From positions 23,436 to 87,435 of the forward strand of contig MESW01000009.1 in NCBI GenBank assembly GCA_001771135.1: DNA of 64,000 nt, in the 5' to 3' direction. The translations under genes and the position numbers were made by a program. The notes under the pieces are model-generated. The model had not been told where the DNA came from, made no database searches, and saw only the letters and a list, made by a program, of their open reading frames with translations. Below are positions 1,060 to 58,256 of the stretch, piece by piece. Positions within the stretch are counted from its first letter, which is position 1. Every line of letters starts with the position of its first letter. The DNA comes from a candidate division CPR3 bacterium GWF2_35_18. Its GTDB lineage: Bacteria; Patescibacteriota; CPR3; GWF2-35-18.

Positions 1060-2343
1060 ATGACAAATTTTTTTTTACTAACCTTTGGGTGTCCAAAAAA
1101 CGAAGTTGTTTCCGAAAATATTGCCCTAAAACTTTTAGAATTCAATATCCAACAAACCCTTAAAATCAGTGAAGCAGATATCGTCATCACAAATACCTGT
1201 GGGTTCATTACTTCTGCGTTAGAAGAAAATCTGCAAACGATTGAATCTTTAATAAAAAATAAAGGCAAAAATCAAAAAATAGCTGTTTTTGGATGTATTC
1301 CGCAACGCTTTTCTCTTGAAAACCTAATCTTGAAGTATCCTTATCTTAAAAAAATTGACCTTTGGGCGAAGAATTTTATAGATCTTCAAGATTTTATCAA
1401 AAAAAGTCAATCAAAAATTGAGGGTTCGAAATTGCTAACTCGACTTAATACCTTTTCTCCTTTTGCCTACGTCGAAATTGCTGAAGGTTGTTCGAATACC
1501 TGTACCTATTGCACGATTCCTTTTTTTAAAGGTCCTTATAAAAGTAAACCAATCGAACAAATTATTAAAGAGATAGCAAGTTTAATTGAATATAGCGTTC
1601 AGGAAATAATCTTGATCGCTCAAGAAACCACTTTTTACGGATTGGATCTTAACCCAAAGACTTCCCTTACTAATCTTATTAAAAAAATATGTGAGCAATT
1701 TCCCCAACTTCTTCGAATCAGAATCATGTATGCTCACCCCAACGGAATAACTGACGAACTTATTGAGACGATCAAGAATAACCCTCAGGTTTGCCCTTAT
1801 ATTGATATTCCTCTACAACACATTGATACGAAAATATTAAAAAGCATGAATCGATTCTACTCGGAGGAAAAAGTAAAACAGCTCATTACGAAATTAAGGA
1901 AAGCTATTCCGAATATTGCTATTCGTTCAACTTTTATCGTTGGCTATCCTGGGGAATCAGAAGCACAATTTGGAAAGCTGAAGAAATTCTTGAAAGAATA
2001 TCAAATCGATCATGCCGGATTTTTTGCTTTTGAAAAGGAGTCGGGAACAAAAGCTGCAAGATTAAAACACCAAAATTCTCAACAAATAAAACAGAAGCGA
2101 TTAAAAGAAATTTATGCTTTACAAGAAAATATTTCCAAGCAGAAAAATGATGGATTAGTAGGGAAAACCCTTAGCATTTTAACTGACTTTAATGACAATG
2201 ACTTTACCTACGGCAGAACCTATTTCCAAACTCCGGAAATTGACGGATATATTAAAATAAAAGGTCAATTAGAAATTGGAAAATATATAAAGATAACTAT
2301 CACTGGAAACGAATATCCCAATCTTCTTGGAAAAAGAGTTTAA
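1060..2343 (+). CDS. rimO: Radical-SAM methylthiotransferase of the MiaB/RimO family (RimO-like) with C-terminal TRAM domain
   Basis: N-terminal MTTase motif LTFGCPKNEVVSE; radical SAM CSNTCTYCTIP (CxxxCxxC); C-terminal TRAM-like segment. Start taken as ATG 1060 (MTNFF) rather than ORF-track Met 1009. Confidence 0.8.
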   Translation: MTNFFLLTFGCPKNEVVSENIALKLLEFNIQQTLKISEADIVITNTCGFITSALEENLQTIESLIKNKGKNQKIAVFGCIPQRFSLENLILKYPYLKKIDLWAKNFIDLQDFIKKSQSKIEGSKLLTRLNTFSPFAYVEIAEGCSNTCTYCTIPFFKGPYKSKPIEQIIKEIASLIEYSVQEIILIAQETTFYGLDLNPKTSLTNLIKKICEQFPQLLRIRIMYAHPNGITDELIETIKNNPQVCPYIDIPLQHIDTKILKSMNRFYSEEKVKQLITKLRKAIPNIAIRSTFIVGYPGESEAQFGKLKKFLKEYQIDHAGFFAFEKESGTKAARLKHQNSQQIKQKRLKEIYALQENISKQKNDGLVGKTLSILTDFNDNDFTYGRTYFQTPEIDGYIKIKGQLEIGKYIKITITGNEYPNLLGKRV

Positions 2344-3023
2344 TTTTCGATAATTTCGATTCTGTTTATCAAAACATTTTCAGTTGGAAATGACATTTCA
2401 CCGGTAGAACTGGCTTTCACTGGAGTACTCGCGATCATATCAAGCACATATTCTCCAGTAATCAGTTCTCCAAAAATCACATAATCTTTTGATAAAGGAT
2501 AATCTACTGTCATAATAAAAAACTGACTCCCGTTAGTGTTTGGACCCGAATTGGCCATAGCTAAAGTTCCTTTTTTGTAATCACGCGTAATTGATTCGTC
2601 AGCGAATTTGTATCCGGGACCACCTGTTCCAGTACCTTTTGGATCTCCGCCTTGAATCATAAAATTTTTCATAATTCGATGGAATTTAGTTTCGTTATAG
2701 AAATCTTCTTTGGCTAAAAAAACAAAGTTGTTCACAGTAATTGGAGTTTCGGAAGGAAAAAGTTTAAACTCCATATTCCCTTTTGAGGTTTTCATTATCG
2801 CAGTATAATTTTTATTCACATCAATCTGCATTGCAGGAGCTGATGTATAAGTTTTTGCACCACTCACGGTTGATTCCTTTCTTTCAGCAGAATTACTTGT
2901 CTGCTCATTATTATTAAGCTTAACATCATCTGATGTTTCGATATCTTTTACCAACATCACGATCCCAAAAATTAAGATCCCTAGAGTTAAAATAATTACT
3001 ATGGTAATTACCTTATTGTTCAT
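2340..3023 (-). CDS. ppiB: Cyclophilin-type peptidyl-prolyl cis-trans isomerase, membrane-anchored
   Basis: Cyclophilin signature FHRIMKNFMIQGGDP...GTGGPGYKFADE; N-terminal TM helix. Confidence 0.85.
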   Translation of the reverse strand: MNNKVITIVIILTLGILIFGIVMLVKDIETSDDVKLNNNEQTSNSAERKESTVSGAKTYTSAPAMQIDVNKNYTAIMKTSKGNMEFKLFPSETPITVNNFVFLAKEDFYNETKFHRIMKNFMIQGGDPKGTGTGGPGYKFADESITRDYKKGTLAMANSGPNTNGSQFFIMTVDYPLSKDYVIFGELITGEYVLDMIASTPVKASSTGEMSFPTENVLINRIEIIEN

Positions 3024-3034
3024 GATTCCTCCTT

Positions 3035-3532
3035 TTAATTTTTCTCAAGGGTAAATTCTACCATATGATTTCCATGATCATAAATGGCTTTATAGGAAAT
3101 CACGTTTTTCTTGTCTCCAAATATATGATCCAAAATTTCCGAACTAAATTCGGCTAGCAGATTTGGAAGTTTTTTAATTTCGTCTACTGTGAGCCATCTT
3201 AACTCTCCGTCAGGAGAATCAATAACTTCGCCATTCTTAAAATCTGCAACTATCATGTGGAAAAATACTTCTGTACCGATATCCTGCAACCAACCCACTC
3301 CCGTAGCTCTAATTTTCAAATTTTTAATTTTCAGTCCGGTTTCTTCCATCACTTCTCGATGCGCGGCTTCAAAAAGACCCTCTCCTTGTTCTCTTTTCCC
3401 ACCTGGAGCCATCCAGACATTCGGCATAATTTTTTTATCAGAATTACGATGAAGCATCAGATATTTATCATCTTTTTTCACAAAACATTCGAATGTCGCG
3501 TGAATTTTACGATCGGACATATTTCCCTTCAA
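3035..3532 (-). CDS. NUDIX hydrolase
   Basis: Nudix box GGKREQGEGLFEAAHREVMEETGL (GX5EX7REUXEEXGU). Confidence 0.8.
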   Translation of the reverse strand: MKGNMSDRKIHATFECFVKKDDKYLMLHRNSDKKIMPNVWMAPGGKREQGEGLFEAAHREVMEETGLKIKNLKIRATGVGWLQDIGTEVFFHMIVADFKNGEVIDSPDGELRWLTVDEIKKLPNLLAEFSSEILDHIFGDKKNVISYKAIYDHGNHMVEFTLEKN

Positions 3533-3540
3533 TAATAAAA

Positions 3541-5058
3541 TTAATGTTTATCTTTTCTCAAAATAAGTACAACAGCATTATCGGCATCAACTTCAATATT
3601 ATCACCATCTTTAATTATTTGAGTCGCGACTTTTGTTCCGACAATACAAGGCACACCAAATTCTCGAGCTAAAATTGCTGCATGACAAGTAATCCCTCCT
3701 TCATCCGTCACAAAAGCACTTGCTTTCTCCATTGCCATTATATAATCAGGAGTTGTCATGGATGCAATAAGAATTTCCCCTTTATTGAGTTTGAATACAT
3801 CTTTATAGGTATTTAAAACCTTCGCAATTCCTCTTACTTTTCCTCTCGAAGCAGATCTCCCAATAATTTTATTATCCAATTTATCTGTATCTTTTGTTAA
3901 TATTCTCTTTATCTTCCGGATTAATAATAATGATTCATCCCCAAATAACGTTTCTACTTTTCCATTAATCCAAATAATTATAAATCCTTTTTCTCTTTTT
4001 TCAATTATTTCATTAACAGAATCATCTCTACATTTAAGATTTTTAACAATCTCAATCGATGATAACATTGTAATATCGTTAAGATTTAAATCAAGTCGAT
4101 TACTAATCTCTTTAAATAAAATACTTCTTCCGATAAAGAACAAATAATCAGAAACTTCTGTAGTATGGGTTCTTAAAAAAATAAAGGATCTTACTGCTTC
4201 AATCAGACTCAATGTTTCGCTATTAAAATGATGTCGTCTAATGATCGCTTCATAATCTTTTTGCTTTTGTTTCCTTATCGAATTAATTCTAGAGATTTCT
4301 TTCTCAGAATCTTTTTGAATCATCAATCTTAATCTATCAAGATAATCTTTTTTAGTAAACGTTAAGAAATTATAAAATAAAGAACCTTTTAACCAAGAAT
4401 ATTTTTTAATATGATTTTGAATTCTATCATTTATATCTTCTGGTAATTTTGATAAATTTATTTTCTTATCTTTTATTTCAGTCGCAATTTCTAATAGATG
4501 TAAAGGTTCATCAACGTATGATAATTCTCCCAATTCTGGATATGTAGCAATTTCCGAGAAGATAGCTTCTATTTCACTGTCTTCAAAATGATATTTATTT
4601 CTTAGATCTGCTTTTAATTGAATTTCTAAATAATTATCCGGCCTCGTCCAAGCAGGAATGAAAGATTCAATATAGTGATTCACAAAATCTTCAAAAATTG
4701 AAATTAATTCGTTATTGTTCAGATTATCTAATTTTGTTCTTTTCAATTCTTCTGTATATTTTATAGTTCGTGATGTAATATCAAAAAGTTTTTGAGAAAA
4801 TTTATTAAAAAAGTCATTATCATCATTAAATTTTGAATCCCAAAAAGAGTACCAATTTTCAAATTCATTTTGAGAATAATACTCTTCCCCATTAAGAATC
4901 AGATAATTTTTATATGGATTTGCAAATCCTAAATATTTTTGCTGCTCGTTTCTTGAATTTGCGAGAATCTGAATATTTTCCACAAACCAATTAAATTTTC
5001 GGCAGACATCAAATACCCATTGAATCTCTTTAACTTGAGAAATTAAGTTAGAATTCAT
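3541..5058 (-). CDS. Protein with C-terminal PEP-utilizing-enzyme mobile (phosphohistidine swivel) domain and an uncharacterised ~400-aa N-terminal region
   Basis: C-terminus GEILIASMTTPDYIMAMEKASAFVTDEGGITCHAAILAREFGVPCIVG matches the PpsA/PPDK/rifampin-phosphotransferase swivel domain with catalytic His; no ATP-grasp (PPDK_N) or TIM-barrel motifs seen. Confidence 0.6.
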   Translation of the reverse strand: MNSNLISQVKEIQWVFDVCRKFNWFVENIQILANSRNEQQKYLGFANPYKNYLILNGEEYYSQNEFENWYSFWDSKFNDDNDFFNKFSQKLFDITSRTIKYTEELKRTKLDNLNNNELISIFEDFVNHYIESFIPAWTRPDNYLEIQLKADLRNKYHFEDSEIEAIFSEIATYPELGELSYVDEPLHLLEIATEIKDKKINLSKLPEDINDRIQNHIKKYSWLKGSLFYNFLTFTKKDYLDRLRLMIQKDSEKEISRINSIRKQKQKDYEAIIRRHHFNSETLSLIEAVRSFIFLRTHTTEVSDYLFFIGRSILFKEISNRLDLNLNDITMLSSIEIVKNLKCRDDSVNEIIEKREKGFIIIWINGKVETLFGDESLLLIRKIKRILTKDTDKLDNKIIGRSASRGKVRGIAKVLNTYKDVFKLNKGEILIASMTTPDYIMAMEKASAFVTDEGGITCHAAILAREFGVPCIVGTKVATQIIKDGDNIEVDADNAVVLILRKDKH

Positions 5059-5125
5059 ATGATCCTATTCTACTCAAAAATATATAATTGTCGAGTTTAT
5101 AATAATGGGAGATTATTTTGGAAAA

Positions 5126-8100
5126 TTAAAAACAAGCCGTAGCCGGACTATGTAACTGAACATCATTTGTCCCATCACAATAACACATGTAATTACCAGT
5201 ATCGTTATAAAAAATCGTTCCTTCAGGGTAACCAGATCCACAAGGATCCGCAGTCACAGAAATTGGTTTTATCCCACCGTTTACTTCTAACTTCGTTTCA
5301 GGATTTGTCGTTCCGATACCGACGTTACCATTTGCTGAGATCATAAAATAATCATTTGTCCCAAACCCCGAAGACATTGAAATTTTGAAACTTCTATCTG
5401 TTATATCTCCTCCCATTACCCAATTAGTACCTGTTGATGGAGTATAATAAATAGTAATTCTTACGTGATCTATATATGCAGTTCTGTTTCCACCTCCGTC
5501 ATCTCTGGCTCTAATGGCTACACCAAAGGTTGAGTTATTAACTTGAGTGGCGGTAAGTCCTACCACACCCCATAAGTTACTACTGCCACCATATCCTGTA
5601 TAATCGTTGGGATCAGTAATTCCCCACTCCAAATCGGTTTGTAGATCGTTTCCAGAATAAACGTCATCAACTACAAGCATCACGGACTGATCAGTCACAC
5701 CACTACCTGAAGCATACCTTTCAAATTCTACGTATACTCCGTTTATAGTAGCATCAGCGGGAATAGTAAATCCAAAATCAGTTATTTTTAAATATTCAGT
5801 CGTATAACCGGTAGGCATTGTAGAAGATGTATATACATTATTACTTGAATATACATTTTGAGGATTAGACCAATCAGTCTGATTAGAAGCAGGAATTGAT
5901 TGTGCTAATGCTGGAGAATTGGCATCAGATGGCGAGACGGACGCCGGAGCATCTAGGAATACGATAGGATCGTATCCTGCTGCCACTATATGTAGAGGTT
6001 GGGATGGAGATGATGTCCCTAATCCTACATAACCACCATCTTCAATAAAAAGACCTAAATTCCCTCCATCATCAAATATTTGTAAACCAGATGCTGAGGA
6101 TGCTCTTAAAGTAGAAACATCAACATCATCTTCTAATGAAAATTCAGCAACATTAAGATCGAGATCATCACCGGCTGTATAACTGCTTCCTCCATCTAAC
6201 GCCGTCCACTCTTCGGCTGAATTTTTATACTCAATAGTTCCAGCATTGTCTCTAATACCATAACCAGATTCACCATCTGTAGAGCCAAAATTAAGATACC
6301 CACCTGCACTTACACCAACATTTCCAACAACGTCTAATTTATGATTTGGACTTGTAGTACCGATCCCAACGGCGCCAGTACTAGTAACAACAAAGTTATT
6401 ATTGACATCAAACAATTGTGAAGGATTGATATTGCCTACACCAAGTTTACCTGTATAGTCTAGTATCATTCTCTTTGTTATTGCACTGGATTGTGTTGTA
6501 TAAAAAACCATATTTGTTTCCGCCGGTCCCATGAGATTGCTCTCTATTCTTGATGTGACAGTTGTTCCCCATCCAAAATCTATTTGGGTTTTGTCAGCTC
6601 CTGCGTATCGAGAGCCCGTAAGCGCTAATTTTGATGTTTCTGATGATCCCGTAAAGGAGGCTAATGTATTTACTGATGAAATTACTGTGAGGGGATAACT
6701 AGGTGCTGTTGCTCCTATTCCAACATTTCCTTGTACAATAAGACTATCCGCTGGGGCTGTTAATACATCATAATTTGACCCAATTGCAACATTTCCATCC
6801 ACTGATAATAATGAGCCAGGATTATTTGATCCAATACCTATATAACCCGCGGCGCTGATATATATGTCGTCACCCGTAGCGTTTCGTGCAAAGGCTTGTG
6901 CTGCTCCACTTTTATAAATATAGAATTGACTACCGACTACTGTTTCTTCAAGTATTAAATAAGGATTGTTAGAAACAATACCTCCTCTAAAATTACTAAT
7001 GTTTTGAGCTGTTGTTAATACATTTTGATTTACTTGTAAACCACTAGGACTAGTAGTACCAATCCCCACGTCCCCATTAAAACTAACTAAATCGTTTGCA
7101 AAGTCACCCCAAATAAGTGGCGATACCGAGTTTGAGTTTTCAATGTAGAGTTTATCTGAACCGGTTTCTGCACTTCCGGCACTTGTTCCAATAAAAACAC
7201 TTCCACTACCTAGATTGCTGTATCCCGCACCCACACCTATTGCGACATTACTCCCCCCTGAAATGTTTTGGTAAAGTGCACTGCTTCCCAGTGCGATATT
7301 ATTACTTCCTGTTTGTAATGTATACAGTGGTCTATACCCAATGCCAATGTTATCGTCGCCGCTAGTAACTGCAGATAGGGGATAACTACCTATTGCGACA
7401 TTACTCTCGCCATTTGTTACTACATTTAGAGCTTTGTGCCCAATACCAATAAGCCCGGTTCCGGTAGTAGTTGTATTTCCGGCAAGAGATCCAATGAACT
7501 GATTAGTTATATCTGTTCCTAGGTTTAGAAATAATCGCCCTGTGTTATTAACATATCCCAAAGGAGTACCGCTACTGTTCTGCCACTCTAGAATATTGGC
7601 TGTTTGAGTACCATTAGCCGTCACGATTAGTTGTTGTGTGTCTGTCGTACCTAATATATGTAGTTTTGCGGTAGGATTTGTTGTTCCTATACCCACATTA
7701 CCACTACTTGTAATTGTAAAATTGTTATTTGACAAGCCACTGTTTAATCCAAAAAATGCACTGTTATCTTTAACACCCCAATATCCTGTTGTATCATTAT
7801 CACTTATCAAAATTTGCGCCAGATCATCCGTATTATAAAAACGTGCCACACTATCAGTTGTTTCACCGTTTACATCCAATCTATAAGATGGAGGAGAACT
7901 GTAAATACCTACATTTTTGCCAACGATATTAATCGAACTATACGAATTTGTTCCAATTACAAATCTATCGTTAGCATCTACAAATAATCTCCCCACTGAT
8001 ATGGGGGTACCTGCTCTCAAGACGCTAATTCCTCTATCGTTACCTGGCGTTCCTCCGGTAATTCCTTGATCTACATATAGTTGCGAAAGTGGAGAGGTTG

Positions 8101-10231
8101 TTCCAATACCCACATTCCCATCTTTATCTAAAACCATTTTCGTAGACACCGCAGCAGTACCGCTCGCTGTCCCAAATTCTAATCTTCCATAAGGATGTAC
8201 GGCATCAAAATCACTCTGTGCTATAACTCTTGCATATCCAGCCACATTCGAACCTGTTAATGATGTATCGTTAGAATAAAAATCTAATTCTCCTATCATT
8301 TGACCAATTCCGACGCCAGTATCAGTACGTTGAAGAGTCAAAATTGGAGATGAGCTACCTACATGCAGAATTGAAACAGCATTTTCAATACCAATACCAA
8401 AATTTCCACCACTTTCTATAATTGCTTTCTGTGCACTTCCAATAGTTGTCCCAGTACCAAAAACTAGATTACCATTTGAAGCATAATAACTTAAATAATA
8501 ATTTTGAGCTTCTCCATCAAAAATTATTCCAGTATCCTCTGCCCCATTGTCACCCAAAGTCAGGAATGGAGTCGTTCCTCCTATTTGAAGCTCTGTAGAA
8601 GGATTTGTTGTTCCGATCCCCACATTACCAGCAAAATATGAATTTGATGTTGCTGCAGAATAAATTGCATAACGATTCGTTCCAATATCAATAGAAGAAT
8701 GTAAATATATACCATACGAATTATCTACTGTTCCCCCATTTGAATAACCGTTAAGCAGTACTCCATACGCATTATTTATCGTTCCGCTAGAGTTTCCAAT
8801 CGATCCACGTAATAACGCTGCTTCTGCAATTGTTCCTCCACCAGAATTATTCATTTGCGCCCTATAATTATATGCTGAAGCTACATAACCAGATCCATAA
8901 TTGCTAAACATAGAGCTATTACCATATCCAACCGTTGCAATATTTCCATAATTAAACACCCCTGATGATAATCCATACATCCAATTTACGGTTCCATCAT
9001 TGGTATTTATTGATCTACTTGATATTCCAGTCATTCCATGTTGCGTATCTGTACCTGTAAATTCATTCACAAGTTGCAAACCTGTAACATAAGGAAAGCC
9101 AACCGTATCTCCCTCTGTTACGTTAGTATGTAAATAACTGGAATAACTTGATATATTACCATTTGTTATTCTCTCTAAATGAAACAATGATGTAGGGTTC
9201 GTCGTTCCAATCCCCACATTGTAACTTGTATCATCAGGATAAAGATTTGATCCCGAAAGTGTCCAAGGTCCTCCAGTCGAAGAGACATCTGTCCAGGAAG
9301 CCACTCCAGATCCATCGGTAGTTAAAACATATCCACTAGAAGCTCCTGACGCCATAGTAAGTGCTGTGATATCTACACTCCCTCCAGAAAGAGATCCTGT
9401 AACATTCCCGGTTAAGTTCCCGGAAAAAGAGGTCGCGGTAATACTTCCCCCATTGGTAAGATCATTGGTTCCGAGATTAATATCTCCACTCATCGTTCCT
9501 CCAGAAAGAGGTAGATAGTTGGAAGCAGTAATTGTGTTAGGAATCATATTATCCGTTAAAGAGTTATTAGGAAATTTGATAGTCCCAAATACTGTCAGAT
9601 TTGTGGTAGAGAGTGTTCGAATATTGGTAATATTATGATCGTTAAGTTTCACATTACCATTAATTGTCCCTCCAATTACAGGAAAGTATTTTGAAGCCGT
9701 AATGCTATTGGGAATCATGGCGTCGGTAATAGAGTTATTAGGTAAAGTCACTATTCCTAAAGTAGTCAGGTTGTTCACAGTAAGAGAAGGGTTGCCAGAT
9801 AATCCGGTAGCATTTCCAATCAGAGACCCTGTTACGGTTCCTTCTACATCTCCAGTAAGGTTACCTTCAAACTCTCCCTGAAAAAGATCGGCGATTAAAC
9901 TTCCCCAGACCTCTAGGTCTGTGGTTACAAATACCCTTTCTCTTGATTCCAGGAAGAGGTAATCATCTGTTACAATATGCATGTGCACATCATCATAGAT
10001 CTTTGACCCCCCTTGATTCAGATTGAAAGACATATACTTACCTTGATTGAAGGTCTCTGATCCCAGAGTAACCTCTGTTCCGGAGATATTAAGGTCTCCA
10101 ATAATGGATAGCTCTTCCGTAATTGTATAAGCATTTGTGATAAGTGGATTAATTAATACAAAGAAGGTGAAAAAGAATACCAAACTTATAATTGATAGAA
10201 ATAATAGTTGCTTTTGAGACAGTGTAAACAT
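5126..10231 (-). CDS. Giant (1701 aa) secreted repeat protein with phage tail-fibre-like repeats; putative adhesin
   Basis: N-terminal signal peptide (..LINPLITNA|YT); at least 11 dispersed copies of the motif GNVGIGTT(N/S)Pxx(K)L(H/E/D)V; N-terminal tandem repeats containing PLSGGTMSG and LTGNVTGSLSGG, typical of tail-fibre/beta-helix proteins. Confidence 0.7.
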   Translation of the reverse strand: MFTLSQKQLLFLSIISLVFFFTFFVLINPLITNAYTITEELSIIGDLNISGTEVTLGSETFNQGKYMSFNLNQGGSKIYDDVHMHIVTDDYLFLESRERVFVTTDLEVWGSLIADLFQGEFEGNLTGDVEGTVTGSLIGNATGLSGNPSLTVNNLTTLGIVTLPNNSITDAMIPNSITASKYFPVIGGTINGNVKLNDHNITNIRTLSTTNLTVFGTIKFPNNSLTDNMIPNTITASNYLPLSGGTMSGDINLGTNDLTNGGSITATSFSGNLTGNVTGSLSGGSVDITALTMASGASSGYVLTTDGSGVASWTDVSSTGGPWTLSGSNLYPDDTSYNVGIGTTNPTSLFHLERITNGNISSYSSYLHTNVTEGDTVGFPYVTGLQLVNEFTGTDTQHGMTGISSRSINTNDGTVNWMYGLSSGVFNYGNIATVGYGNSSMFSNYGSGYVASAYNYRAQMNNSGGGTIAEAALLRGSIGNSSGTINNAYGVLLNGYSNGGTVDNSYGIYLHSSIDIGTNRYAIYSAATSNSYFAGNVGIGTTNPSTELQIGGTTPFLTLGDNGAEDTGIIFDGEAQNYYLSYYASNGNLVFGTGTTIGSAQKAIIESGGNFGIGIENAVSILHVGSSSPILTLQRTDTGVGIGQMIGELDFYSNDTSLTGSNVAGYARVIAQSDFDAVHPYGRLEFGTASGTAAVSTKMVLDKDGNVGIGTTSPLSQLYVDQGITGGTPGNDRGISVLRAGTPISVGRLFVDANDRFVIGTNSYSSINIVGKNVGIYSSPPSYRLDVNGETTDSVARFYNTDDLAQILISDNDTTGYWGVKDNSAFFGLNSGLSNNNFTITSSGNVGIGTTNPTAKLHILGTTDTQQLIVTANGTQTANILEWQNSSGTPLGYVNNTGRLFLNLGTDITNQFIGSLAGNTTTTGTGLIGIGHKALNVVTNGESNVAIGSYPLSAVTSGDDNIGIGYRPLYTLQTGSNNIALGSSALYQNISGGSNVAIGVGAGYSNLGSGSVFIGTSAGSAETGSDKLYIENSNSVSPLIWGDFANDLVSFNGDVGIGTTSPSGLQVNQNVLTTAQNISNFRGGIVSNNPYLILEETVVGSQFYIYKSGAAQAFARNATGDDIYISAAGYIGIGSNNPGSLLSVDGNVAIGSNYDVLTAPADSLIVQGNVGIGATAPSYPLTVISSVNTLASFTGSSETSKLALTGSRYAGADKTQIDFGWGTTVTSRIESNLMGPAETNMVFYTTQSSAITKRMILDYTGKLGVGNINPSQLFDVNNNFVVTSTGAVGIGTTSPNHKLDVVGNVGVSAGGYLNFGSTDGESGYGIRDNAGTIEYKNSAEEWTALDGGSSYTAGDDLDLNVAEFSLEDDVDVSTLRASSASGLQIFDDGGNLGLFIEDGGYVGLGTSSPSQPLHIVAAGYDPIVFLDAPASVSPSDANSPALAQSIPASNQTDWSNPQNVYSSNNVYTSSTMPTGYTTEYLKITDFGFTIPADATINGVYVEFERYASGSGVTDQSVMLVVDDVYSGNDLQTDLEWGITDPNDYTGYGGSSNLWGVVGLTATQVNNSTFGVAIRARDDGGGNRTAYIDHVRITIYYTPSTGTNWVMGGDITDRSFKISMSSGFGTNDYFMISANGNVGIGTTNPETKLEVNGGIKPISVTADPCGSGYPEGTIFYNDTGNYMCYCDGTNDVQLHSPATACF

Positions 10232-10295: not shown

Positions 10296-11405
10296 TTATT
10301 CGCGTTCGAAGCGGAAAAGTCTTAGGGCTAAAGTGATGGAAATTATCAACCATCCACCCATAAAAAGAAGTTCTGTTTGAAGCTCAAAAAGATTCGCATC
10401 CTGCAAGGCGATTTTTCGCAAGGCTTCAATAAAAGGAGTAAGAGGTAAATAAGAAACGACATTTTTTATCACATCTGGTAAAGCCTCTTTCGAAAAGAAA
10501 ACGCCCGAAAGAAACATCATCGGCATCGAAACAACTTGAATCATTCCTTGAGCGGCATCCACGGTTTTGGCGACACCAGCCACCGCAAACCCTAAGCTTA
10601 AAAATATTAACTGCCCCAACAAACCGATAAAATAAAGATAAAAAATATTTCCAAAGATATGAACTTTGAAGATAAAAAGAGAGATCAAAATTATCAGAGT
10701 CATTTGGATCAAACTGATAAGAAGATTGGATAAAACAAAAGCCAACAGAAATGACCTTGTCCGAAGAGGTGTAGACATGAGCTTTCGTAAAGTATGTTTT
10801 TCACGAAAAGAAACAATACTCATAGCGATTCCAAACAATCCACCTTGCATCAGAGACATTCCTATTATTCCAGGAACTAGAACATCTAGATAATTAATAT
10901 TCTTGGATTCGATCTCCTGTTTTTCATAGGAAAAAACTTGAGGGGTTTGGAAAATCTGAATATTCATTCCAGACATAAATTGTTCAAGTAATCCAAAAAC
11001 AATCCCGTTTAACTGCACATTACTTTTGTCGTAAAATACCTGAATCGGCTCCACGGCAACACGAGAAGGTCCAGATTCGGTCATTTGTAAATTAAAATTC
11101 TGTGGAATTATGAAGACAAAGTCAAGATCTCCATCTAAAACAGCATTTTTCGCTTCTTCCTCATTTTGATAGTTATCGTCTATTTTCAAAACTTCAACTT
11201 TTTTTAAATTATCGACAAAATCTTTTGAGAATTCTGAATCAGCATTATCTATCAAAGCCACATTTGAGACACCCATCTTATCAAAATTAAAAAGTCCAAA
11301 AATCAGAATAAACATTATCGGAAAAAAGATCATCCAAAAAAGGGTATCCTTTTGCCTTAAAAACATTTTGATTCTGGCAATAAATAATTTCCAAAAAGAC
11401 TTCAT
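10296..11405 (-). CDS. ABC-2 type transporter permease
   Basis: N-terminal TM, ~190-aa extracytoplasmic domain, then 5 C-terminal TMs; directly downstream of an ABC ATPase with a 2-nt gap. Confidence 0.7.
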   Translation of the reverse strand: MKSFWKLFIARIKMFLRQKDTLFWMIFFPIMFILIFGLFNFDKMGVSNVALIDNADSEFSKDFVDNLKKVEVLKIDDNYQNEEEAKNAVLDGDLDFVFIIPQNFNLQMTESGPSRVAVEPIQVFYDKSNVQLNGIVFGLLEQFMSGMNIQIFQTPQVFSYEKQEIESKNINYLDVLVPGIIGMSLMQGGLFGIAMSIVSFREKHTLRKLMSTPLRTRSFLLAFVLSNLLISLIQMTLIILISLFIFKVHIFGNIFYLYFIGLLGQLIFLSLGFAVAGVAKTVDAAQGMIQVVSMPMMFLSGVFFSKEALPDVIKNVVSYLPLTPFIEALRKIALQDANLFELQTELLFMGGWLIISITLALRLFRFERE

Positions 11406-11407
11406 TG

Positions 11408-12205
11408 TTACTCCCTTAAACTTTTCCCAGTAAGATTTAAAAAAACATCCTCAAGATCAGCAAGCTGCCGGACTCTTTCTTTTTTAAATCCAGACTTCAA
11501 TAAATTTTCAATTAATTTTTGTGGGGTATCCAAAGTGATAATTTTACCCTCATCCATAATGGCCACTCGGTCACACAGAACCTCTGCTTCTTCCATATAG
11601 TGTGTAGTTAATATCACAGTTTTTCCTCTTTGTTTTAGCTTTTTGATTATTTCCCAGGTATGACGACGGGCTTGCGGATCAAGTCCAGTTGTAGGTTCGT
11701 CAAGAAAAATCACCTCTGGATCATTTACCATAGCTACTCCAATTGATAATCTCTGTCGTTGTCCACCTGAAAGCTTCTTAACCAAAGTATTTTTCTTCTC
11801 CTGTAAATCAAAATCATCTATTATTTCTGCTAAATCTTTCTGATACTTGTAAAATGAAGCAAAAAGATCCAGAGTCTCACAAACTGTCAGCTCTTCAAAA
11901 AATGCCGATGACTGTAATTGCACTCCAATTCTTTCTTTTAACTCTTTGATATTTGTACGAACATCAAATCCTAAAATCGAAATTTCTCCATTACTGATAC
12001 TCCTTAAGCTTTCCATCATTTCCACCGTTGTAGTTTTCCCTGCTCCATTTGGACCCAGTAGACCAAAAACTTCGTTTTTGTAGACCTCAAAGGAAATCCC
12101 TTTTACGGCTTCGAGCTCACCGTTATATTTTTTATGCAGATCTTTTACTTTGATAACAACTTCTTTTTTCATATTAACTATTACTAAATAAAGATAAGAA
12201 AACAA
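11408..12205 (-). CDS. ABC transporter ATP-binding protein
   Basis: Walker A GPNGAGKTT; signature LSGGQRQRLSIG; Walker B IFLDEPTTGLD; true start probably MKKEVV at 12172. Confidence 0.9.
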   Translation of the reverse strand: MFSYLYLVIVNMKKEVVIKVKDLHKKYNGELEAVKGISFEVYKNEVFGLLGPNGAGKTTTVEMMESLRSISNGEISILGFDVRTNIKELKERIGVQLQSSAFFEELTVCETLDLFASFYKYQKDLAEIIDDFDLQEKKNTLVKKLSGGQRQRLSIGVAMVNDPEVIFLDEPTTGLDPQARRHTWEIIKKLKQRGKTVILTTHYMEEAEVLCDRVAIMDEGKIITLDTPQKLIENLLKSGFKKERVRQLADLEDVFLNLTGKSLRE

Positions 12206-12249
12206 TAAACCAGTCTAGCAAAATGATAATTAAAGTCAAGAGGAGAATG

Positions 12250-13293
12250 TTATACTTTCAAAATATCCATCGCCACTTTATTCACAAAACGGTAGTGAAT
12301 TACTTCCATAAATGCGTCGGCAAAAAAATCCGCAGCATTTCCCATTCCTTGAGCTAATCGTAATACCCTTTTCTGAATATTTTGGTATTTCAATATATTT
12401 TGAATCTTTGGAGTATCGTATTCTGGAGCAATAATTTTTCGAGCAACCTCTTCACCTGTAACAATAGCATTATAAATCCCCTCTCCTGTTAACGGAGCTG
12501 TAAAACCACCAGCATCTCCAATTAAAAACATATTTCCAAACTCAAATCCTTGATAATCATAGTTTATAGGAGCACTTTCATACTGACATTTTGAAAGATC
12601 TATTTTCTTACTTTTAATGAAATCTTCTAATTTAGGCTTAATATCGCTAATCTTTGATCTTTGCGTAACATCTATTCCAGTTCCAATTGATGTAAAATTC
12701 TGGTGAGGAAATATCCACAGATACGTAAACCCATATTTTTCAACATTAACAAATAATTCCATATCTTGCATCTGTTTAGGCACTACATAGTGAAAAGCTA
12801 CTAAAAGATTCTTAGATTCCAAATTAAGAGATCGGCGTACTACCGAACTTGCGCCATCTGCACCTATCAAATAATCAAAACTAACTTCTTGTCCGCTATT
12901 TAGATAAACTTTTTCTTGATCTACTTTTATCACCGTACTAGTAACTAAAGGAACTCCCAACTTCTTAACTATTGAGTATTGCCATTTACCTAAAACTTCT
13001 CGATCAATTGTATAGGCAAGAGGAATTTCAATCCTAACTCTACTTATTTTGTGATGACTATGGAGAAGAACTGAGGAAAATTCTCGAGAAATAATATCTT
13101 TTGGAATACCTGATTCTAAATCTTTATGAGTTAATCCACCGGCACAAACTTTCTTCCCAATCACTTTATTCTTTTCTAAAATAACGACTTCTTTTCCTGC
13201 CTCTTTTAGAATTCTAGCTGCAGCTAATCCTGCTGGTCCTGCTCCAATGACGATAACTTCATAATGAGATTTAAGCTTATTTTTGGGAGTCAT
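12250..13293 (-). CDS. Geranylgeranyl reductase family FAD-dependent oxidoreductase
   Basis: FAD-binding VIVIGAGPAGLAAARIL; GGR-type motif FLIGDAGGFTAPLTGEGI. Confidence 0.7.
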   Translation of the reverse strand: MTPKNKLKSHYEVIVIGAGPAGLAAARILKEAGKEVVILEKNKVIGKKVCAGGLTHKDLESGIPKDIISREFSSVLLHSHHKISRVRIEIPLAYTIDREVLGKWQYSIVKKLGVPLVTSTVIKVDQEKVYLNSGQEVSFDYLIGADGASSVVRRSLNLESKNLLVAFHYVVPKQMQDMELFVNVEKYGFTYLWIFPHQNFTSIGTGIDVTQRSKISDIKPKLEDFIKSKKIDLSKCQYESAPINYDYQGFEFGNMFLIGDAGGFTAPLTGEGIYNAIVTGEEVARKIIAPEYDTPKIQNILKYQNIQKRVLRLAQGMGNAADFFADAFMEVIHYRFVNKVAMDILKV

Positions 13294-13684
13294 TTTTTAT
13301 TTCTGTCTTGATACTTTTTTTCTCTAATAATAACCCAAGCAATATACTGTTTATCGGAATTGATAAATACCGAAAACCAATTTCTTTCATATAGGTTACA
13401 AAAGTCATATCTTTATTGAAAGACAACACGCCCACAATATCGAGCAAAATTCCCAAAACGAAACCAAAAACACCAATCAAGATACCATCAATTAAAAAAT
13501 GGCTCTTTTTATCCATATAATAATAATAGGATAATCCACACCAAGTAAGCATTCCAATCACAATCATAATGGTTTTGAAATAATGGATATCTGTCTGCAT
13601 CAAAGGGAAAAAAAGTAGACTAAAAGCATAAGGAATTGCCCACATTAAAAAAGTAATCAGCAAAATTGTAAGGTATTTTTTCAT
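13277..13684 (-). CDS. Small integral membrane protein, 4 TM
   Basis: 135 aa hydrophobic; 17-nt overlap with the downstream reductase gene suggests coupling. Confidence 0.5.
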   Translation of the reverse strand: MKKYLTILLITFLMWAIPYAFSLLFFPLMQTDIHYFKTIMIVIGMLTWCGLSYYYYMDKKSHFLIDGILIGVFGFVLGILLDIVGVLSFNKDMTFVTYMKEIGFRYLSIPINSILLGLLLEKKSIKTEIKNDSQK

Positions 13685-13694
13685 ATTTAATCCT

Positions 13695-14525
13695 TTAATT
13701 TTCTTTCAAAGATTTTAGCTCAGCAATAATATCTTGAATAATATCTTTAGCTTCCTGAACTTCCTGTTTTGCCTTCTGTAAATCTTGCTTTCCCGCCTCT
13801 AAATAAGCCTCAGATTCAGTAGTATCTTCAGCAGGTTCCATAGCTCGAAAATTACTTTTGGCAGAATCAAGATAACCTTGAATTTCTTGGAATTTTGCCT
13901 GTAAATTATCAACTAGACCCTCAACAACAGTAGTATCTTTTCCTGCGTTTTTATATTCTTCAATAGCTATTTCTATTCTCGTAATTACTTTTGCCTCATT
14001 CTCGGATAAAACGTATTCTGCCCATCCAACGGCGCGCAGCCCTCGATCTTTGGGGAGCTCAACAATATAAACACGGTAATCATAAAAAATATTCCTTATT
14101 AGATCTTTTAAAGAAGCTAAATCAGTAGCGCTTTCTATAGAAGCTTTAAGTGCAACTAAACCGTCATAACTTGTCTGCATATTCGTCACAATTTCATCGC
14201 GATTTTCTTCTGACAATCGCAAAGTATTCCCGAGAATTTCCTGGGCTTTGGTCAGATCTTGCAGTCGAACATCAATCAGCTTAATTGCATATTCCTTTAA
14301 CATTTGAAGCCTATCTTCAGCTAAAGAATTTCGGAAATTTTCCAGTGTTTGCTGTAGTTCTGCTTGATTCTCTTGAAGCTGTGTCCTAATTTCACTCACG
14401 TATTGATTTTTATTTGAAGAAGAAGTGCTTTGAAGGAAATCTCCAAAAGCTAAAGATGATTGAGGAGTAAATAATATTAAAGCAAAAATAATGCTTAATA
14501 TGGTTTGAGTTTTGTTTTTCTTCAT
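13695..14525 (-). CDS. Secreted coiled-coil protein
   Basis: Signal peptide (..SSLAFG); heptad-like Q/E/L-rich sequence. Confidence 0.5.
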   Translation of the reverse strand: MKKNKTQTILSIIFALILFTPQSSLAFGDFLQSTSSSNKNQYVSEIRTQLQENQAELQQTLENFRNSLAEDRLQMLKEYAIKLIDVRLQDLTKAQEILGNTLRLSEENRDEIVTNMQTSYDGLVALKASIESATDLASLKDLIRNIFYDYRVYIVELPKDRGLRAVGWAEYVLSENEAKVITRIEIAIEEYKNAGKDTTVVEGLVDNLQAKFQEIQGYLDSAKSNFRAMEPAEDTTESEAYLEAGKQDLQKAKQEVQEAKDIIQDIIAELKSLKEN

Positions 14526-14573
14526 ATCTTTAGTCCTTTTTAATCTTTATGTTTTAATTCTAAAAATCTTTTA

Positions 14574-14981
14574 CTAGATAGTAGGCATGGTATCATCTTG
14601 TGTTTGATAGTCCTCAATATCAACTAGAGAATTTTCTAAATCTACTAGAGCATCATCTAACTCATCATTAAGATTATTCAACTCTATGATTCCCTCACTT
14701 TGATTATCTTGTTCTGTTTTTGTTGTCGCCTCCGAGGTTGCTTGTTCAATATCAAAAGATCGCTGTGCTGACTGGGAAGAGGTATTATTATCTTCGGAAG
14801 TTGAAGGTTTACTATTTACCAAAAAAAATATTACTACTATAACCAAAAAGATAAAAATTAAAAGAAAGAGAATAATTAGAACAGAAAAACCTTTTTTTGT
14901 TTCTGGAACATAGTTTTGACTAGAAGCAGCTTCCTGCCACTTTGATTGATTTTGAACATTGTTTATATTATTTTCTTTCAT
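14574..14981 (-). CDS. Single-pass membrane protein with acidic C-terminal tail
   Basis: Central TM (LIILFLLIFIFLVIVVIFFLV); D/E-rich C-terminus. Confidence 0.45.
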   Translation of the reverse strand: MKENNINNVQNQSKWQEAASSQNYVPETKKGFSVLIILFLLIFIFLVIVVIFFLVNSKPSTSEDNNTSSQSAQRSFDIEQATSEATTKTEQDNQSEGIIELNNLNDELDDALVDLENSLVDIEDYQTQDDTMPTI

Positions 14982-15209: not shown

Positions 15210-15977
15210 TCATTTGAAATTCCTAGTCTCAAATATGCTATAAAGAATAATCGAACCTGCAATCGTCGCGTTTAGAGAATCAACTTTCCCTTTCATTGGA
15301 ATTGAGATAAGACCATCACAGTTCTTTTTCACTAAATCTCTCAACCCTTCTCCCTCACTTCCAACGACAACTCCAACTGGACCAGATAGATCTTGTTCGT
15401 TATATTTCACTCCTTCATTTACACCACCAAGTCCATAAACCCAGACATTCTTCTCTTTCAAGACCTGAATTGCCTGAGAGATATTTGCAACCTGAGAAAT
15501 CAAAAGATGTTCAGCAGCTCCAGAGGAAGAGTTTACAACAGACGGAGTTATCCCCACAGCACGTCGTTCTTGAATAATCACACCATGCACACCGGTTGCT
15601 TCCGCAGTTCTCAGTAATGACCCCACGTTTTGAGGATCTTGTAAAAGATCAAGGATTAAAACTAAAGAATCTTCATTTTGATTCCGACTAAAAGTGAAAA
15701 TCTCATCAAGAGTTACATAAGGATACGTACTTCCTTCCAAAACCACACCTTGATGCTGTCGATGTTTAACTATCGCTTCGAGTTTGTGTTGAGTAATCGG
15801 CGTGATCGGAATCTTCTTTGAACTACAAAGGGATTTTATCTCGGTAATAACATCGGATTTTAAATCAACTCCTTGAGAAAGATAGAGATTTTTAAATTTC
15901 CGACGGCTTGCTCTTAATGATTCTAGAACTGGATTTCTTCCGTATAAATATTCCATATTGATTAATTTAAATATCAA
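15210..15977 (-). CDS. rlmB: SpoU/TrmH family 23S rRNA (guanosine-2'-O)-methyltransferase
   Basis: Motifs LDLLQDPQNVGSLLRTAEATG, GSEGEGL, IPMKGKVDSLNATIAGSIILY; start may be MEYLYG at 15956. Confidence 0.8.
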   Translation of the reverse strand: MIFKLINMEYLYGRNPVLESLRASRRKFKNLYLSQGVDLKSDVITEIKSLCSSKKIPITPITQHKLEAIVKHRQHQGVVLEGSTYPYVTLDEIFTFSRNQNEDSLVLILDLLQDPQNVGSLLRTAEATGVHGVIIQERRAVGITPSVVNSSSGAAEHLLISQVANISQAIQVLKEKNVWVYGLGGVNEGVKYNEQDLSGPVGVVVGSEGEGLRDLVKKNCDGLISIPMKGKVDSLNATIAGSIILYSIFETRNFK

Positions 15978-35104: not shown

Positions 35105-36325
35105 CTACTCGTATCTCAAAGCATCAAGAGGTTTCAGCTTATGTGCTCTAATAGCTGGATAAAAACCGGTAATTAATCCAATGAATAAACCGATCAAGAT
35201 AATATAAAAAACAATGTATGGAGGAGTGTAATAAAAAGAAACAGGAGAAACTCCTCTTCCCAAAGCAATTATTTGAAAAGATTTTTCTAAAATAAATCCC
35301 AAAACGAAACTCAAAATAATTCCTAAAATTGAACCTAATAAACTTATTGTAATAGATTCAATGAAAAATAAAATAAAAACTGAACTATTTCTTGTTCCCA
35401 AAGCTTTCATGATCCCAATTTCTCTCATCCGGTCTAAAAGAGATATTGTCAACGTATTAAACATACCTAATATGGCAATTGTAACTCCCACAAAACCGAT
35501 AACCATTAAAATAATTCTAAAGGTCGTAAAAACGGTCTGAATCTGTTCTAAAGTATCAAAAGCAGAAGAAGTTGTATACCCCATAGCTTCAATCTTGGCG
35601 CGCACTTCAGTTAATCTTTCCTGATCACTAAGAAGAACTTTAACCTTTGAATAACTGGGATTATTAAGTTCGGGTAAGGAATCAAAAAAAAGATATGCTG
35701 TTGGACTCTCTTTCTGATTTTTTCGATCTGTCACAACGCTTTCAATTGTTAAATCTTTCTTCCTCGTTTGTATTGCCAGACCATCTTCACTTTTTATAAT
35801 ATTTGTAGGAAATATTATTTCAAGTTCAGCTTTCTGACCTATAAAATTATTAACATCCTCATTCTTGGTTCCTAGGATATTTGGAATAATCTCATTTACA
35901 ATTAAATTAGGAGAACTAAGCTCTGCAAAGGATTTCCCGGCAACTAAGCTCTTGTAACTGTATTTTAGATAATTGTTATCCATAACTAATACTGTAATAT
36001 CAAGCACTGAACCACCTAACTTTAATTTACCCACACAATTGATTTGAGGAATGATCGTTTCTACTCCTTCAAGTTGTTTAATTTTATTTACTGAATCACT
36101 ATTAAGAAGTAAAACTGCTGATTGTTCACTGTCTACATCTATACTTCTTAATGCATCTAATCCAACTGTCTGTTCTTGAACCAATCTTTCTAAACCATAA
36201 CCTATTGAAAGAAGAATAATTACAAAAGCCATTCCGATAGCAATAGCAAATATAGTAAAAAAACTACGGCTTTTCCGATTTAAAAGGTTTAAAATAGCAA
36301 TTCGTACTAATTCAAAAAACTTCAT
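35105..36325 (-). CDS. MacB/FtsX-type ABC transporter permease
   Basis: TM1, large extracytoplasmic domain, then 3 C-terminal TMs (FtsX fold); 406 aa. Confidence 0.8.
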   Translation of the reverse strand: MKFFELVRIAILNLLNRKSRSFFTIFAIAIGMAFVIILLSIGYGLERLVQEQTVGLDALRSIDVDSEQSAVLLLNSDSVNKIKQLEGVETIIPQINCVGKLKLGGSVLDITVLVMDNNYLKYSYKSLVAGKSFAELSSPNLIVNEIIPNILGTKNEDVNNFIGQKAELEIIFPTNIIKSEDGLAIQTRKKDLTIESVVTDRKNQKESPTAYLFFDSLPELNNPSYSKVKVLLSDQERLTEVRAKIEAMGYTTSSAFDTLEQIQTVFTTFRIILMVIGFVGVTIAILGMFNTLTISLLDRMREIGIMKALGTRNSSVFILFFIESITISLLGSILGIILSFVLGFILEKSFQIIALGRGVSPVSFYYTPPYIVFYIILIGLFIGLITGFYPAIRAHKLKPLDALRYE

Positions 36326-58188: not shown

Positions 58189-58256
58189 AGTCTCTTAAAT
58201 CCTAAACAAATTAGAATTTGTAATTTTTTTAGAGTTTAGTTTTTATTATTTCGAAT

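Follow-up and report, generated by a model that had tools for sequence, protein, structure and literature searches.

Introduction

Patescibacteria, the candidate phyla radiation (CPR), form a large part of bacterial diversity, and their life is one of attachment to other cells. Among ATP-binding cassette (ABC) transporters, FtsEX acts on PcsB or EnvC and LolCDE extracts lipoproteins, and both serve below as parallels for a proposed mechanism. Transporters of the MacB family have been described as mechanotransducers and not as polypeptide translocators (PMC5985334); the superfamily performs mechanical work outside the membrane and carries no substrate across it (PMC5985334; PMC7668044; PMC12646458). 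For giant membrane proteins of other CPR bacteria, a role in attachment has been proposed (PMC8080830). Here, two giant genes that each adjoin ABC transporter genes were investigated in the candidate division CPR3 bacterium GWF2_35_18, from Rifle aquifer groundwater (assembly GCA_001771135.1). The window, which is the whole stretch of DNA that was analysed, comprises 64,000 nucleotides (nt) of contig MESW01000009.1 (positions 23,436 to 87,435), and coordinates given without a locus number refer to it. Giant 1, a tail-fibre-like protein, is encoded in a run of minus-strand genes together with a geranylgeranyl-reductase-family flavoprotein and an ABC-2 exporter (cluster 1), while giant 2 is encoded beside a MacB-type ABC transporter (module 2). 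The proteins discussed are named 'hypothetical' or generically in public records.

From this recurring pairing, a sequence-only reading of the window had suggested that the transporters are dedicated export or quality-control partners of the giants, or are co-regulated with them. There are three ABC loci among the 66 genes of the window, and the naive chance that both giants adjoin one of them is ~0.8 %; this figure was computed post hoc, and conservation in relatives was therefore made the decisive test. On that basis we put a probability of about 0.7 on the reading that cluster 1 arose by accretion of independent genes and that giant 2 and its MacB/Lol-type pair form a conserved two-part module.

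Conservation of giant 2 with a MacB-type transporter

The position of giant 2 next to a MacB-type transporter, as first described, was borne out by an ATPase gene and a gene for a MacB_PCD/FtsX permease. The features of module 2 are as follows.

37175..46297, minus strand: giant 2, 3040 amino acids (aa), with an N-terminal signal anchor, three LamG domains, FN3 and Pur_ac_phosph_N repeats (Pfam)
37178..37291, minus strand: C-terminal tail of giant 2, ending ...NIVVTDEPAENILELVLESLRRSFGWLFGE
36333..37157, minus strand: ABC ATPase, LolD/FtsE/MacB-like (PF00005, 114 bits; TIGR02211 LolD, 195 bits, cutoff 308)
35105..36325, minus strand: permease of the MacB/LolCE type (type VII ABC; PF12704, 48.7 bits; PF02687, 67.2 bits)

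In the permease, a periplasmic core domain is combined with a C-terminal domain of the FtsX type, and a PF00005 ATPase is encoded next to it, which is the type VII ABC architecture. Against equivalog models it scored 85.9 bits for LolCE (TIGR02212, cutoff 362), 72.7 bits for MacB (cutoff 966) and 59.6 bits for FtsX (cutoff 225).

Relatives of the permease were sampled at 51, 50, 38, 38, 37 and 34 % identity, and a giant FN3-rich protein adjoins the ATPase-permease pair in all six of these independent relatives (loci are numbered with the prefix L).

L142: 2863-aa giant, upstream of the pair
L143: 1003-aa giant, upstream of the pair
L144/L145: 2804-aa giant, downstream of the pair, after a response regulator
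L146: giant of at least 1675 aa, downstream of the pair, ended by the contig edge
L147: 2509-aa giant, upstream of the pair
L148/L149: giant of about 2300 aa, upstream of the pair

Homology of these giants to giant 2 spans ~1000 residues at the C-terminus (34-51 % identity) and ~200 at the N-terminus, and the giants of module 2 carry N-terminal Sec-type signals. The linkage of giant and transporter is kept despite flipped positions of the giant and changed flanks (PspC/LiaF, HrcA-GrpE-DnaK, Thy1, GalT/MarR, RecG or LysM), and the permeases are 34-59 % identical to one another. Open reading frames (ORFs) of at least 1000 aa are rare, at ~9 per 1.13 Mb, so that six independent chance retentions are very unlikely; of the nine such ORFs in 1.13 Mb of loci chosen without regard to ABC genes, not one lay within 2.5 kb of an ABC ATPase. 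For giant 2, the proposal of a dedicated partner thus agrees with the synteny of the relatives; for giant 1, as shown below, it does not.

The same adjacency could be an inherited gene order without coupling, the transporter being in that case an ordinary pump for efflux of antimicrobial peptides or toxins and for envelope stress. Such a function would suit the genes for PspC-domain and LiaF-like envelope-stress proteins that follow the permease in the window (33446-35055), and long-form relatives are labelled as antimicrobial-peptide ABC permeases by the Joint Genome Institute (JGI); moreover, the examples were all ascertained via the permease. The PspC and LiaF-like genes are, however, not conserved in the six relatives, where the flanks vary, and a mere inherited order is difficult to reconcile with a giant that shifts from upstream to downstream of the pair and is still retained at such low identity between permeases. 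We consider uncoupled inheritance unlikely, and a conserved two-part module remains the preferred reading of these loci.

Dedicated export across the membrane, the first of the roles that had been suggested for the transporters, appears unlikely for both giants, because each has its own N-terminal Sec-type signal and the MacB family consists of mechanotransducers (PMC5985334). The arrangement recalls type I secretion of giant adhesins (LapA-LapBCE, RTX) in pairing an ABC transporter gene with one for a giant adhesin that is repetitive and has a conserved element at its C-terminus. It differs in that the transporter of module 2 is MacB-type, the giants have Sec-type signals, and neither a membrane-fusion protein nor RTX repeats were found. 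Measured against HlyB-type exporters, there were no matches to ABC_membrane (PF00664), HlyD or RTX models, and the annotated neighbours in the window and the six relatives include no membrane-fusion adaptor or outer-membrane duct of the MacAB-TolC type.

The locus L148 (L148:1-11200) shows a further arrangement, in which the tailed giant lies between two MacB-type systems. The orthologous ATPase-permease pair is downstream of the giant; the second pair is upstream, in the order permease-ATPase, with FolD between it and the giant.

The C-terminal tail of giant 2

The tail motif SLxxxFGWLF is kept in all five relatives with a complete giant C-terminus (L142, L143, L144/L145, L147 and L148/L149) as well as in the window. 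An exhaustive search with the last 75 residues of giant 2 gave 3,780 representative clusters at E <=1e-3, a count that is inflated because half of the query is repeated FN3-like sequence. The motif was found at the extreme C-terminus in 30 of the best 150 library matches, with the consensus ...LTPxxxxSilQiIixnFExTFGWv followed by ~5 residues (mean net charge +1.5), and the tail-bearing proteins among these best 150 are 545-6,321 aa long. A hidden Markov model (HMM) of the tail, run over 150 fetched loci (1.9 Mb), matched only ORFs <=900 nt from an orthologous permease; more distant MacB-type genes in these loci had no tail-bearing neighbour. No model in Pfam or NCBIfam, known C-terminal sorting signals included, covers the tail, and a scan of viral contigs with the giant 2 C-terminus yielded no relatives.

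Some observations weigh against a specific role for the tail in module 2. The tail examples were all ascertained by anchoring on the MacB permease. The amphipathicity of the tail is weak (mean z 1.1), and the idea of an amphipathic helix was set aside at this value. A single-sequence AlphaFold model of the last 201 residues places a terminal helix over the tail at a pLDDT of 48, which is too low to rely on.

A possible mechanism and its parallels

As the giants have their own signals and the MacB family acts by mechanotransmission, docking or actuation via the tail is proposed. The extracytoplasmic domain of the transporter, driven by ATP, would hold, release or actuate the giant through its C-terminal tail, much as FtsEX acts on PcsB or EnvC and LolCDE on lipoproteins. 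The N-terminus of the L148 giant resembles a cleavable signal peptide (read by eye, without a predictor); if this signal is cleaved, another element is needed to retain the giant at the cell. It is conceivable, although we lean against rather than towards it, that FGW-tailed giants and their MacB/Lol-like pair constitute an undescribed system of Patescibacteria for the handling of surface proteins, in which the tail would be a sorting or docking signal. On reading it, a type VII ABC transporter would anchor, release or actuate, by ATP-driven mechanotransmission, a giant that attaches to the host. Such a system would parallel Lol, sortase and FtsEX-PcsB in function, but both its signal and its class of client would be new. 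It would also widen the known roles of type VII ABC mechanotransducers, and the MacB-type pair with its FGW-tailed giants would offer a signal-plus-machine handle on how CPR bacteria deploy attachment proteins.

In comparison with described systems, module 2 looks like a new variant of the theme of a type VII ABC transporter with a partner. With FtsEX-PcsB/EnvC/CwlO and LolCDE it shares the MacB periplasmic core and FtsX C-terminal transmembrane (TM) domain of the permease and the separate LolD/FtsE-like ATPase, and with FtsEX a conserved genomic partner that is an extracytoplasmic protein. Unlike these systems, it scores far below the LolCE, MacB and FtsX cutoffs, and the partner is an FN3/LamG protein of 1000-3000 aa with an FGW tail, in putative contact with the transporter, instead of a coiled-coil hydrolase activator or a lipoprotein. 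The giant genes of Omnitrophota (bioRxiv 10.1101/2023.11.21.568195) are similar in that they occur in ultrasmall host-dependent bacteria and have conserved transport-related neighbours. Those neighbours are type II secretion-like systems and binding-protein-dependent carbohydrate importers, whereas here they are a two-gene MacB-type pair, and the proteins of module 2 are ten-fold smaller. A description of the linkage between giant 2 and MacB-type genes was not found in the literature searched, the coverage of which was incomplete.

Gene content and packing of cluster 1

The genes of cluster 1 are listed from upstream to downstream; those assigned to an older backbone, and two blocks that appear specific to the lineage of the window, are marked.

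15210..15977, minus strand: SpoU-type RNA methyltransferase (Pfam PF00588 and PF08032); backbone gene
14574..14981, minus strand: single-pass membrane protein, 135 aa; lineage-specific, block B
13695..14525, minus strand: secreted protein, 276 aa, probably coiled-coil; lineage-specific, block B
13277..13684, minus strand: multi-TM (4-TM) protein, 135 aa; overlaps the reductase gene by 17 nt
12250..13293, minus strand: flavin adenine dinucleotide (FAD) flavoprotein of the geranylgeranyl reductase family (TIGR02032); backbone gene
11408..12205, minus strand: ABC ATPase, DrrA/NodI-like (PF00005, 108.9 bits; TIGR01188, 259.6 bits)
10296..11405, minus strand: ABC-2 permease, partner of the ATPase (PF12698, 169.3 bits; PF01061, 109.5 bits)
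5126..10231, minus strand: giant 1, 1701 aa, tail-fibre-like; lineage-specific insertion, block A
3541..5058, minus strand: phosphoenolpyruvate (PEP)-utilizers mobile (swivel) protein, 505 aa (PF00391, 92 bits, residues 425-494); block A
3035..3532, minus strand: NUDIX hydrolase (PF00293, 62.3 bits); block A
2340..3023, minus strand: cyclophilin-type peptidyl-prolyl isomerase with an N-terminal membrane anchor (PF00160, 142.8 bits); backbone gene

ORF and domain checks confirmed the genes, their order, strand and coordinates between 14981 and 3541. The same-strand run is longer than first described, extending from 16562 down to 2340 with the addition of DPBB and SpoU genes upstream and of NUDIX and cyclophilin genes downstream. 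The gaps within 14981-3541 are -17 to 67 nt, all on the minus strand, and those flanking the giant 1 gene are 64-67 nt. Tight co-directional packing is the default of the whole window and is therefore uninformative as evidence for an operon: the minus strand carries 55 of the 66 genes, neighbours share a strand in 52 of 65 pairs (median gap 33.5 nt), and 75 % of the gaps between co-directional genes do not exceed 70 nt. Counts from promoter and terminator consensus scans of the window equalled the shuffle expectation. Scans for tRNA genes and Rfam families gave no match in the window, and hence no riboswitch or integration-site tRNA; a scan for anti-phage defence families gave no meaningful match.

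Gene order of cluster 1 in relatives

Closer relatives of cluster 1 (L087 and L088/L089) come from metagenome assemblies only. The order in L088/L089 is DPBB-SpoU-reductase-ABC ATPase-ABC-2 permease-cyclophilin-(MiaB, on the opposite strand)-orf244, a backbone that is collinear with the window at 51-70 % identity (reductase, 51 %). The block of giant, PEP-swivel and NUDIX genes (3035-10231) is missing, as are the three small genes between reductase and SpoU (13277-14981); six genes of the 14981-3541 run are absent, and the ABC-2 permease, 61 % identical in L088, is followed directly by cyclophilin with no giant. In L087 the reductase is 60 % identical and is preceded by a 4-TM gene and followed by two genes with a lycopene-cyclase domain. 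A giant 1 homolog is present at a different site, upstream of SpoU and six genes from the ABC genes. The ABC ATPase orthologs of L087 and L088 are 70 % identical to that of the window, and the SpoU ortholog keeps its relative position in L087, L088 and L089 at 57-61 % identity. Gene order across 14981-3541 is thus not conserved in the diverged relatives, and with packing that does not discriminate, the description of this run as a single operon-like unit was not sustained.

Wider sampling gave a similar picture. A reductase-anchored set comprised 80 loci, one genome per species, at 36-48 % identity to the reductase, from Patescibacteria, DPANN archaea, Methanoperedens, Bacteroidales and Zixibacteria. 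None of the 80 holds a giant 1 homolog; in six Patescibacteria loci the next gene after the reductase is cyclophilin, and the orthologous ABC-2 pair is near the reductase only in the Berkelbacteria locus L015, in divergent orientation and separated from it by an RNase P RNA gene (9494-9965, 138.5 bits). In an ABC-2-anchored set of 50 metagenome loci holding permease relatives, the ATPase-permease pairing is invariant, the reductase is nearby in just one locus (L096, Berkelbacteria-like) and giant 1 homologs are again absent (0/50). No ABC gene adjoins two other giant 1 homologs (L090 and L091), and a second ABC-2 transporter in the window (56899-58982) has no giant neighbour.

58257-58982: second ABC-2 ATPase
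56899-58188: second ABC-2 permease (PF12698)

The simplest history of cluster 1 that these comparisons suggest has two steps. In the CPR3 clade, an old backbone of SpoU, reductase, cyclophilin and MiaB would have gained a DrrAB/NatAB-like efflux pair of the ABC-2 family, inserted after the reductase and before cyclophilin; later, the lineage of the window would have gained the block of giant 1, PEP-swivel and NUDIX genes, and also the three small membrane or secreted genes upstream of the reductase. The ABC-2 pair is placed first and the giant block later because the reductase-cyclophilin arrangement is taken as the outgroup. Flanking repeats around the inserted blocks were sought and none was convincing.

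A single functional operon from 14981 to 3541, in which the ABC-2 transporter serves giant 1 as a dedicated exporter or quality-control partner or is co-regulated with it, would account for the common strand and the short gaps around the giant gene, for the ABC adjacency of both giants in the window (the naive chance of ~0.8 % given above) and for the L087 giant 1 homolog ~4 kb from orthologous ABC genes. The spacing is, however, that of the genome at large, giant 1 bears its own Sec-type signal, and its homologs are neither found at the 50 ABC-2 loci nor ABC-adjacent in L090 and L091. L088/L089 keep the ABC-2 pair and the backbone without the giant, which is the outcome that the sequence-only reading had itself named as telling against the linkage. 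We regard the operon as very unlikely and largely refuted already by synteny.

The reading of cluster 1 as an accreted run has to be set against the following. The L087 homolog of giant 1 is within ~4 kb of the ABC genes, downstream of which the contig ends, and there may be a looser association of giant 1 and ABC genes within CPR3 at the level of the neighbourhood. Proximity of reductase and ABC-2 genes also occurs in the Berkelbacteria-type loci L015 and L096, in divergent orientation with the RNase P RNA gene between. Finally, the history rests on three diverged loci of the CPR3 clade plus the wider sampling. As a patchwork, cluster 1 cautions against the inference of operons where nearly all genes are co-directional and tightly packed.

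Giant 1, a tail-fibre-like protein

The tail-fibre-like character of giant 1 was corroborated by matches to PHROG tail-fibre families (phrog_9942, 1e-20; phrog_18345, 6.5e-17) and to cyanophage tail-fibre or virion proteins (28-34 % identity, E 8e-14 to 9e-7); the match to the Bdellovibrio fibre chains 8ojn/8ond is marginal (E about 1e-3). No Pfam domain was found in giant 1, the C-terminal intramolecular chaperone PF13884 included, and several of its homologs carry PF13884. The protein has an N-terminal hydrophobic signal of the Sec type, is rich in Gly, Thr, Ser and Asn and contains eight GNVGIGTTxP-type motifs; the corresponding intragenic repeats (families D1-D4) are the only real DNA repeats in the region. 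A foreign composition of the giants was considered and rejected, as the high G+C content is confined to codon position 2 (0.47 versus 0.32 for giant 1) and G+C at codon position 3 (GC3) is native.

Residues 1-334 of giant 1 recur unchanged (100 % identity) in protein P0122, after which identity drops to ~26-30 %. The break coincides with the first GIGTT motif, and a C-terminal Cys-containing motif is kept. This looks like swapping of distal modules between near-identical strains, with the GIGTT repeats (D1-D4) as candidate recombination junctions. A second protein, P0460, had been considered as a length variant of giant 1 and was rejected, being the same protein called from Met293.

Chimeric fibres of Bdellovibrio combine a constant base with an exchangeable shaft and tip (PMC10769870). 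As giant 1 shares this combination with phage tail and Bdellovibrio fibres, it is most likely, from its sequence, a cell-surface fibre for attachment to the host, in line with the proposal made for other CPR bacteria (PMC8080830). It would be exported by Sec via its own N-terminal signal and form a surface fibre that attaches to the host cell, and its distal modules would be exchanged between strains at GNVGIGTTxP junctions in the fashion of phage tail fibres. A likeness to phage tail fibres and to the mosaic adhesive trimer fibres of Bdellovibrio (PMC10769870) is seen in the sequence matches and in the conserved base with swapped distal modules, and to the latter also in that giant 1 is encoded by a cell with a host-dependent lifestyle. 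In contrast to those fibres, giant 1 is without PF13884, its trimerization and host binding are putative and the matches to PDB structures are marginal. As a modular, strain-variable fibre, giant 1 is a plausible determinant of host range.

Two homologs of giant 1 were found in other settings. In the complete Roizmanbacteria genome CP066689 (L091:2207-19642), three giant genes stand in tandem and encode a 1894-aa LamG/DUF2341 protein, a 1213-aa giant 1 homolog and a 3622-aa protein. At L090:853-17937, a phage-like contig that also carries Cpn60/Cpn10 and numerous unannotated genes encodes a giant 1 homolog of 1502 aa (P0123), a context that would fit an exchange of fibre modules by phages and cells.

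Both the L090 contig and the matches of giant 1 to tail-fibre PHROGs and cyanophage proteins could be taken to indicate that a prophage left giant 1 and its neighbours behind and that the fibre belongs to a phage tail rather than to the cell. Yet there is no other phage gene, integrase or tRNA in or near block A, flanking repeats are lacking and GC3 is native; the N-terminus is of the Sec type typical of a cell-surface protein, and the Roizmanbacteria homolog lies among other cellular giant surface proteins. A prophage origin is accordingly given very little credence, the least of the alternatives considered here, and giant 1 is preferably read as a fibre of the cell surface.

The reductase and the ABC-2 transporter

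Enzymes of the archaeal geranylgeranyl reductase type have an FAD-binding GxGxxG motif, an active-site Cys and a YxWxFP motif. The best solved relative of the window reductase is 3oz2 (E 3.9e-11), the Thermoplasma digeranylgeranylglycerophospholipid reductase. The FAD motif, Cys and YxWxFP of the window protein align with 3oz2, and the residues concerned (G17/G19/G22, C50 and Y191/W193/F195/P196) are invariant among 23 homologs. TIGR02032 gives a full-length match (residues 11-285 of 347) with 155.6 bits, a marginal miss of the 158.8-bit cutoff. The protein thus shares with geranylgeranyl and digeranylgeranylglycerophospholipid reductases the three motifs and the span of the TIGR02032 match, and differs from them in its position 3 bits below the cutoff and in its widely varying neighbours.

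The sequence-only reading had regarded a prenyl-reductase homolog as unexpected in this context. Many Patescibacteria and DPANN archaea (L007-L086) have relatives of the reductase at 38-49 % identity, the archaea including Woesearchaeota, Nanoarchaeota, Micrarchaeota, Aenigmatarchaeota and Altiarchaeota, and the presence of the reductase in a CPR genome is therefore ordinary; it belongs with the conserved backbone rather than with the giant gene. We know of no archaeal-type lipids in the CPR3 host bacterium. That CPR and DPANN, both ultrasmall and host-dependent, share this subfamily would be explained by lateral transfer or by a shared need to modify scavenged isoprenoids, and it raises the question of what isoprenoid is the substrate in these lipid-scavenging symbionts.

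The genes next to the reductase in relatives give a hint of an isoprenoid substrate. In L087 (L087:6013-6658), two small membrane proteins with a lycopene-cyclase domain (PF18916; 31.3 bits for the first, against a cutoff of 27, and 20.8 bits for the second) are encoded between the reductase and the ABC ATPase; the window has no counterpart of these genes. In a Patescibacteria metagenome-assembled genome, a UbiA-family prenyltransferase gene (116.6 bits; L041:2319-3185) lies directly downstream of the reductase homolog. From its family membership and these neighbours, the reductase would most likely saturate a polyprenyl or isoprenoid chain.

The ABC-2 pair has an ABC-2 membrane domain beside an ABC ATPase, as is characteristic of ABC-2 exporters. 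It resembles DrrAB/NatAB exporters in its PF00005 and PF12698/PF01061 domains and in a pairing that is invariant in relatives, and differs in scores below the DrrA/DrrB subfamily cutoffs (TIGR01188, 259.6 against 312.45 bits; TIGR01247, 61.6 against 223 bits). Judging by family resemblance, the pump would most likely export a small hydrophobic or amphipathic compound.

Reductase, 4-TM protein and ABC-2 transporter might instead form an isoprenoid-lipid module, in which the pump flips or exports a reduced polyprenyl or carotenoid-like lipid and the giant is an unrelated insertion. This would make sense of the adjacency of reductase and ABC-2 genes in the three diverged CPR3-clade loci and their proximity in L015 and L096, of the 4-TM gene, which overlaps the reductase gene by 17 nt and is kept in L087, and of the lycopene-cyclase-domain genes between reductase and ABC genes in that locus. 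It fits poorly with ~32 Patescibacteria-labelled loci in which the reductase is beside ABC-2 genes only in the divergent arrangement of L015, with RNase P RNA between, and in which cyclophilin is more often the next gene after the reductase. The 4-TM gene is missing from L088/L089, and the permease belongs to the drug/Na+-type PF12698 group and has no specific lipid-flippase signature. Such a module is judged improbable, and the accretion of independent genes is retained as the reading of cluster 1.

An unannotated 7-TM family of ~240 aa, with no Pfam match, adjoins the reductase homolog in four Patescibacteria loci.

L009:1020-1739, 7-TM family member
L020:10979-11698, 7-TM family member
L022:10980-11345, 7-TM family member
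L054:1101-1850, 7-TM family member

The remaining genes of cluster 1 and neighbouring genes

The 4-TM protein has no Pfam, NCBIfam or PHROG match. A homolog that is 73 % identical is encoded upstream of the reductase in L087, and none was found in L088/L089 or in the 80 reductase-anchored loci. Relationships of the 4-TM protein to the lycopene-cyclase-domain proteins of L087 and to the 7-TM family were considered and rejected, there being no similarity to the former and no relation to the latter.

The 276-aa protein has a signal-peptide-like N-terminus, and E, K, Q, L, A and R make up 52 % of its residues after residue 30; from this helix-favouring composition, and without a dedicated coiled-coil predictor, it is probably coiled-coil. 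Homologs of this protein were absent from L087, L088 and L089, as were those of the 135-aa single-pass membrane protein (14574..14981), for which no family in Pfam or NCBIfam scored above cutoff. Gene calling in the population variant L001 (L001:8780-9599) splits the 276-aa gene into two ORFs of 197 and 85 aa, suggestive of a frameshift. In L003 the gene is given a length of 234 aa, and no call is made for the 135-aa gene upstream of it. These calls suggest that the 276-aa gene is dispensable or variable.

The longest ORF for the ABC ATPase of cluster 1 begins at a TTG codon at 12205, while public gene calls give 254 aa. The true start is probably ~11 codons downstream, at an ATG near 12172 as calculated from the 254-aa call, and this start would widen the gap to the reductase gene to ~77 nt. 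In the PEP-swivel protein, the C-terminal PF00391 is the sole domain found; its gene and the NUDIX gene are absent from the corresponding position in L088/L089.

Four NUDIX hydrolase genes lie in a stretch of ~20 kb of the window (3035-3532, 18965-19405, 19402-19902 and 22393-22797). Just upstream of giant 2, a PEMT/ICMT-like membrane methyltransferase is encoded at 46597-47031, followed on the opposite strand at 47244-47633 by a protein with a cytochrome b5-like haem/steroid-binding domain (80 bits), which is seemingly unusual for a reduced bacterium.

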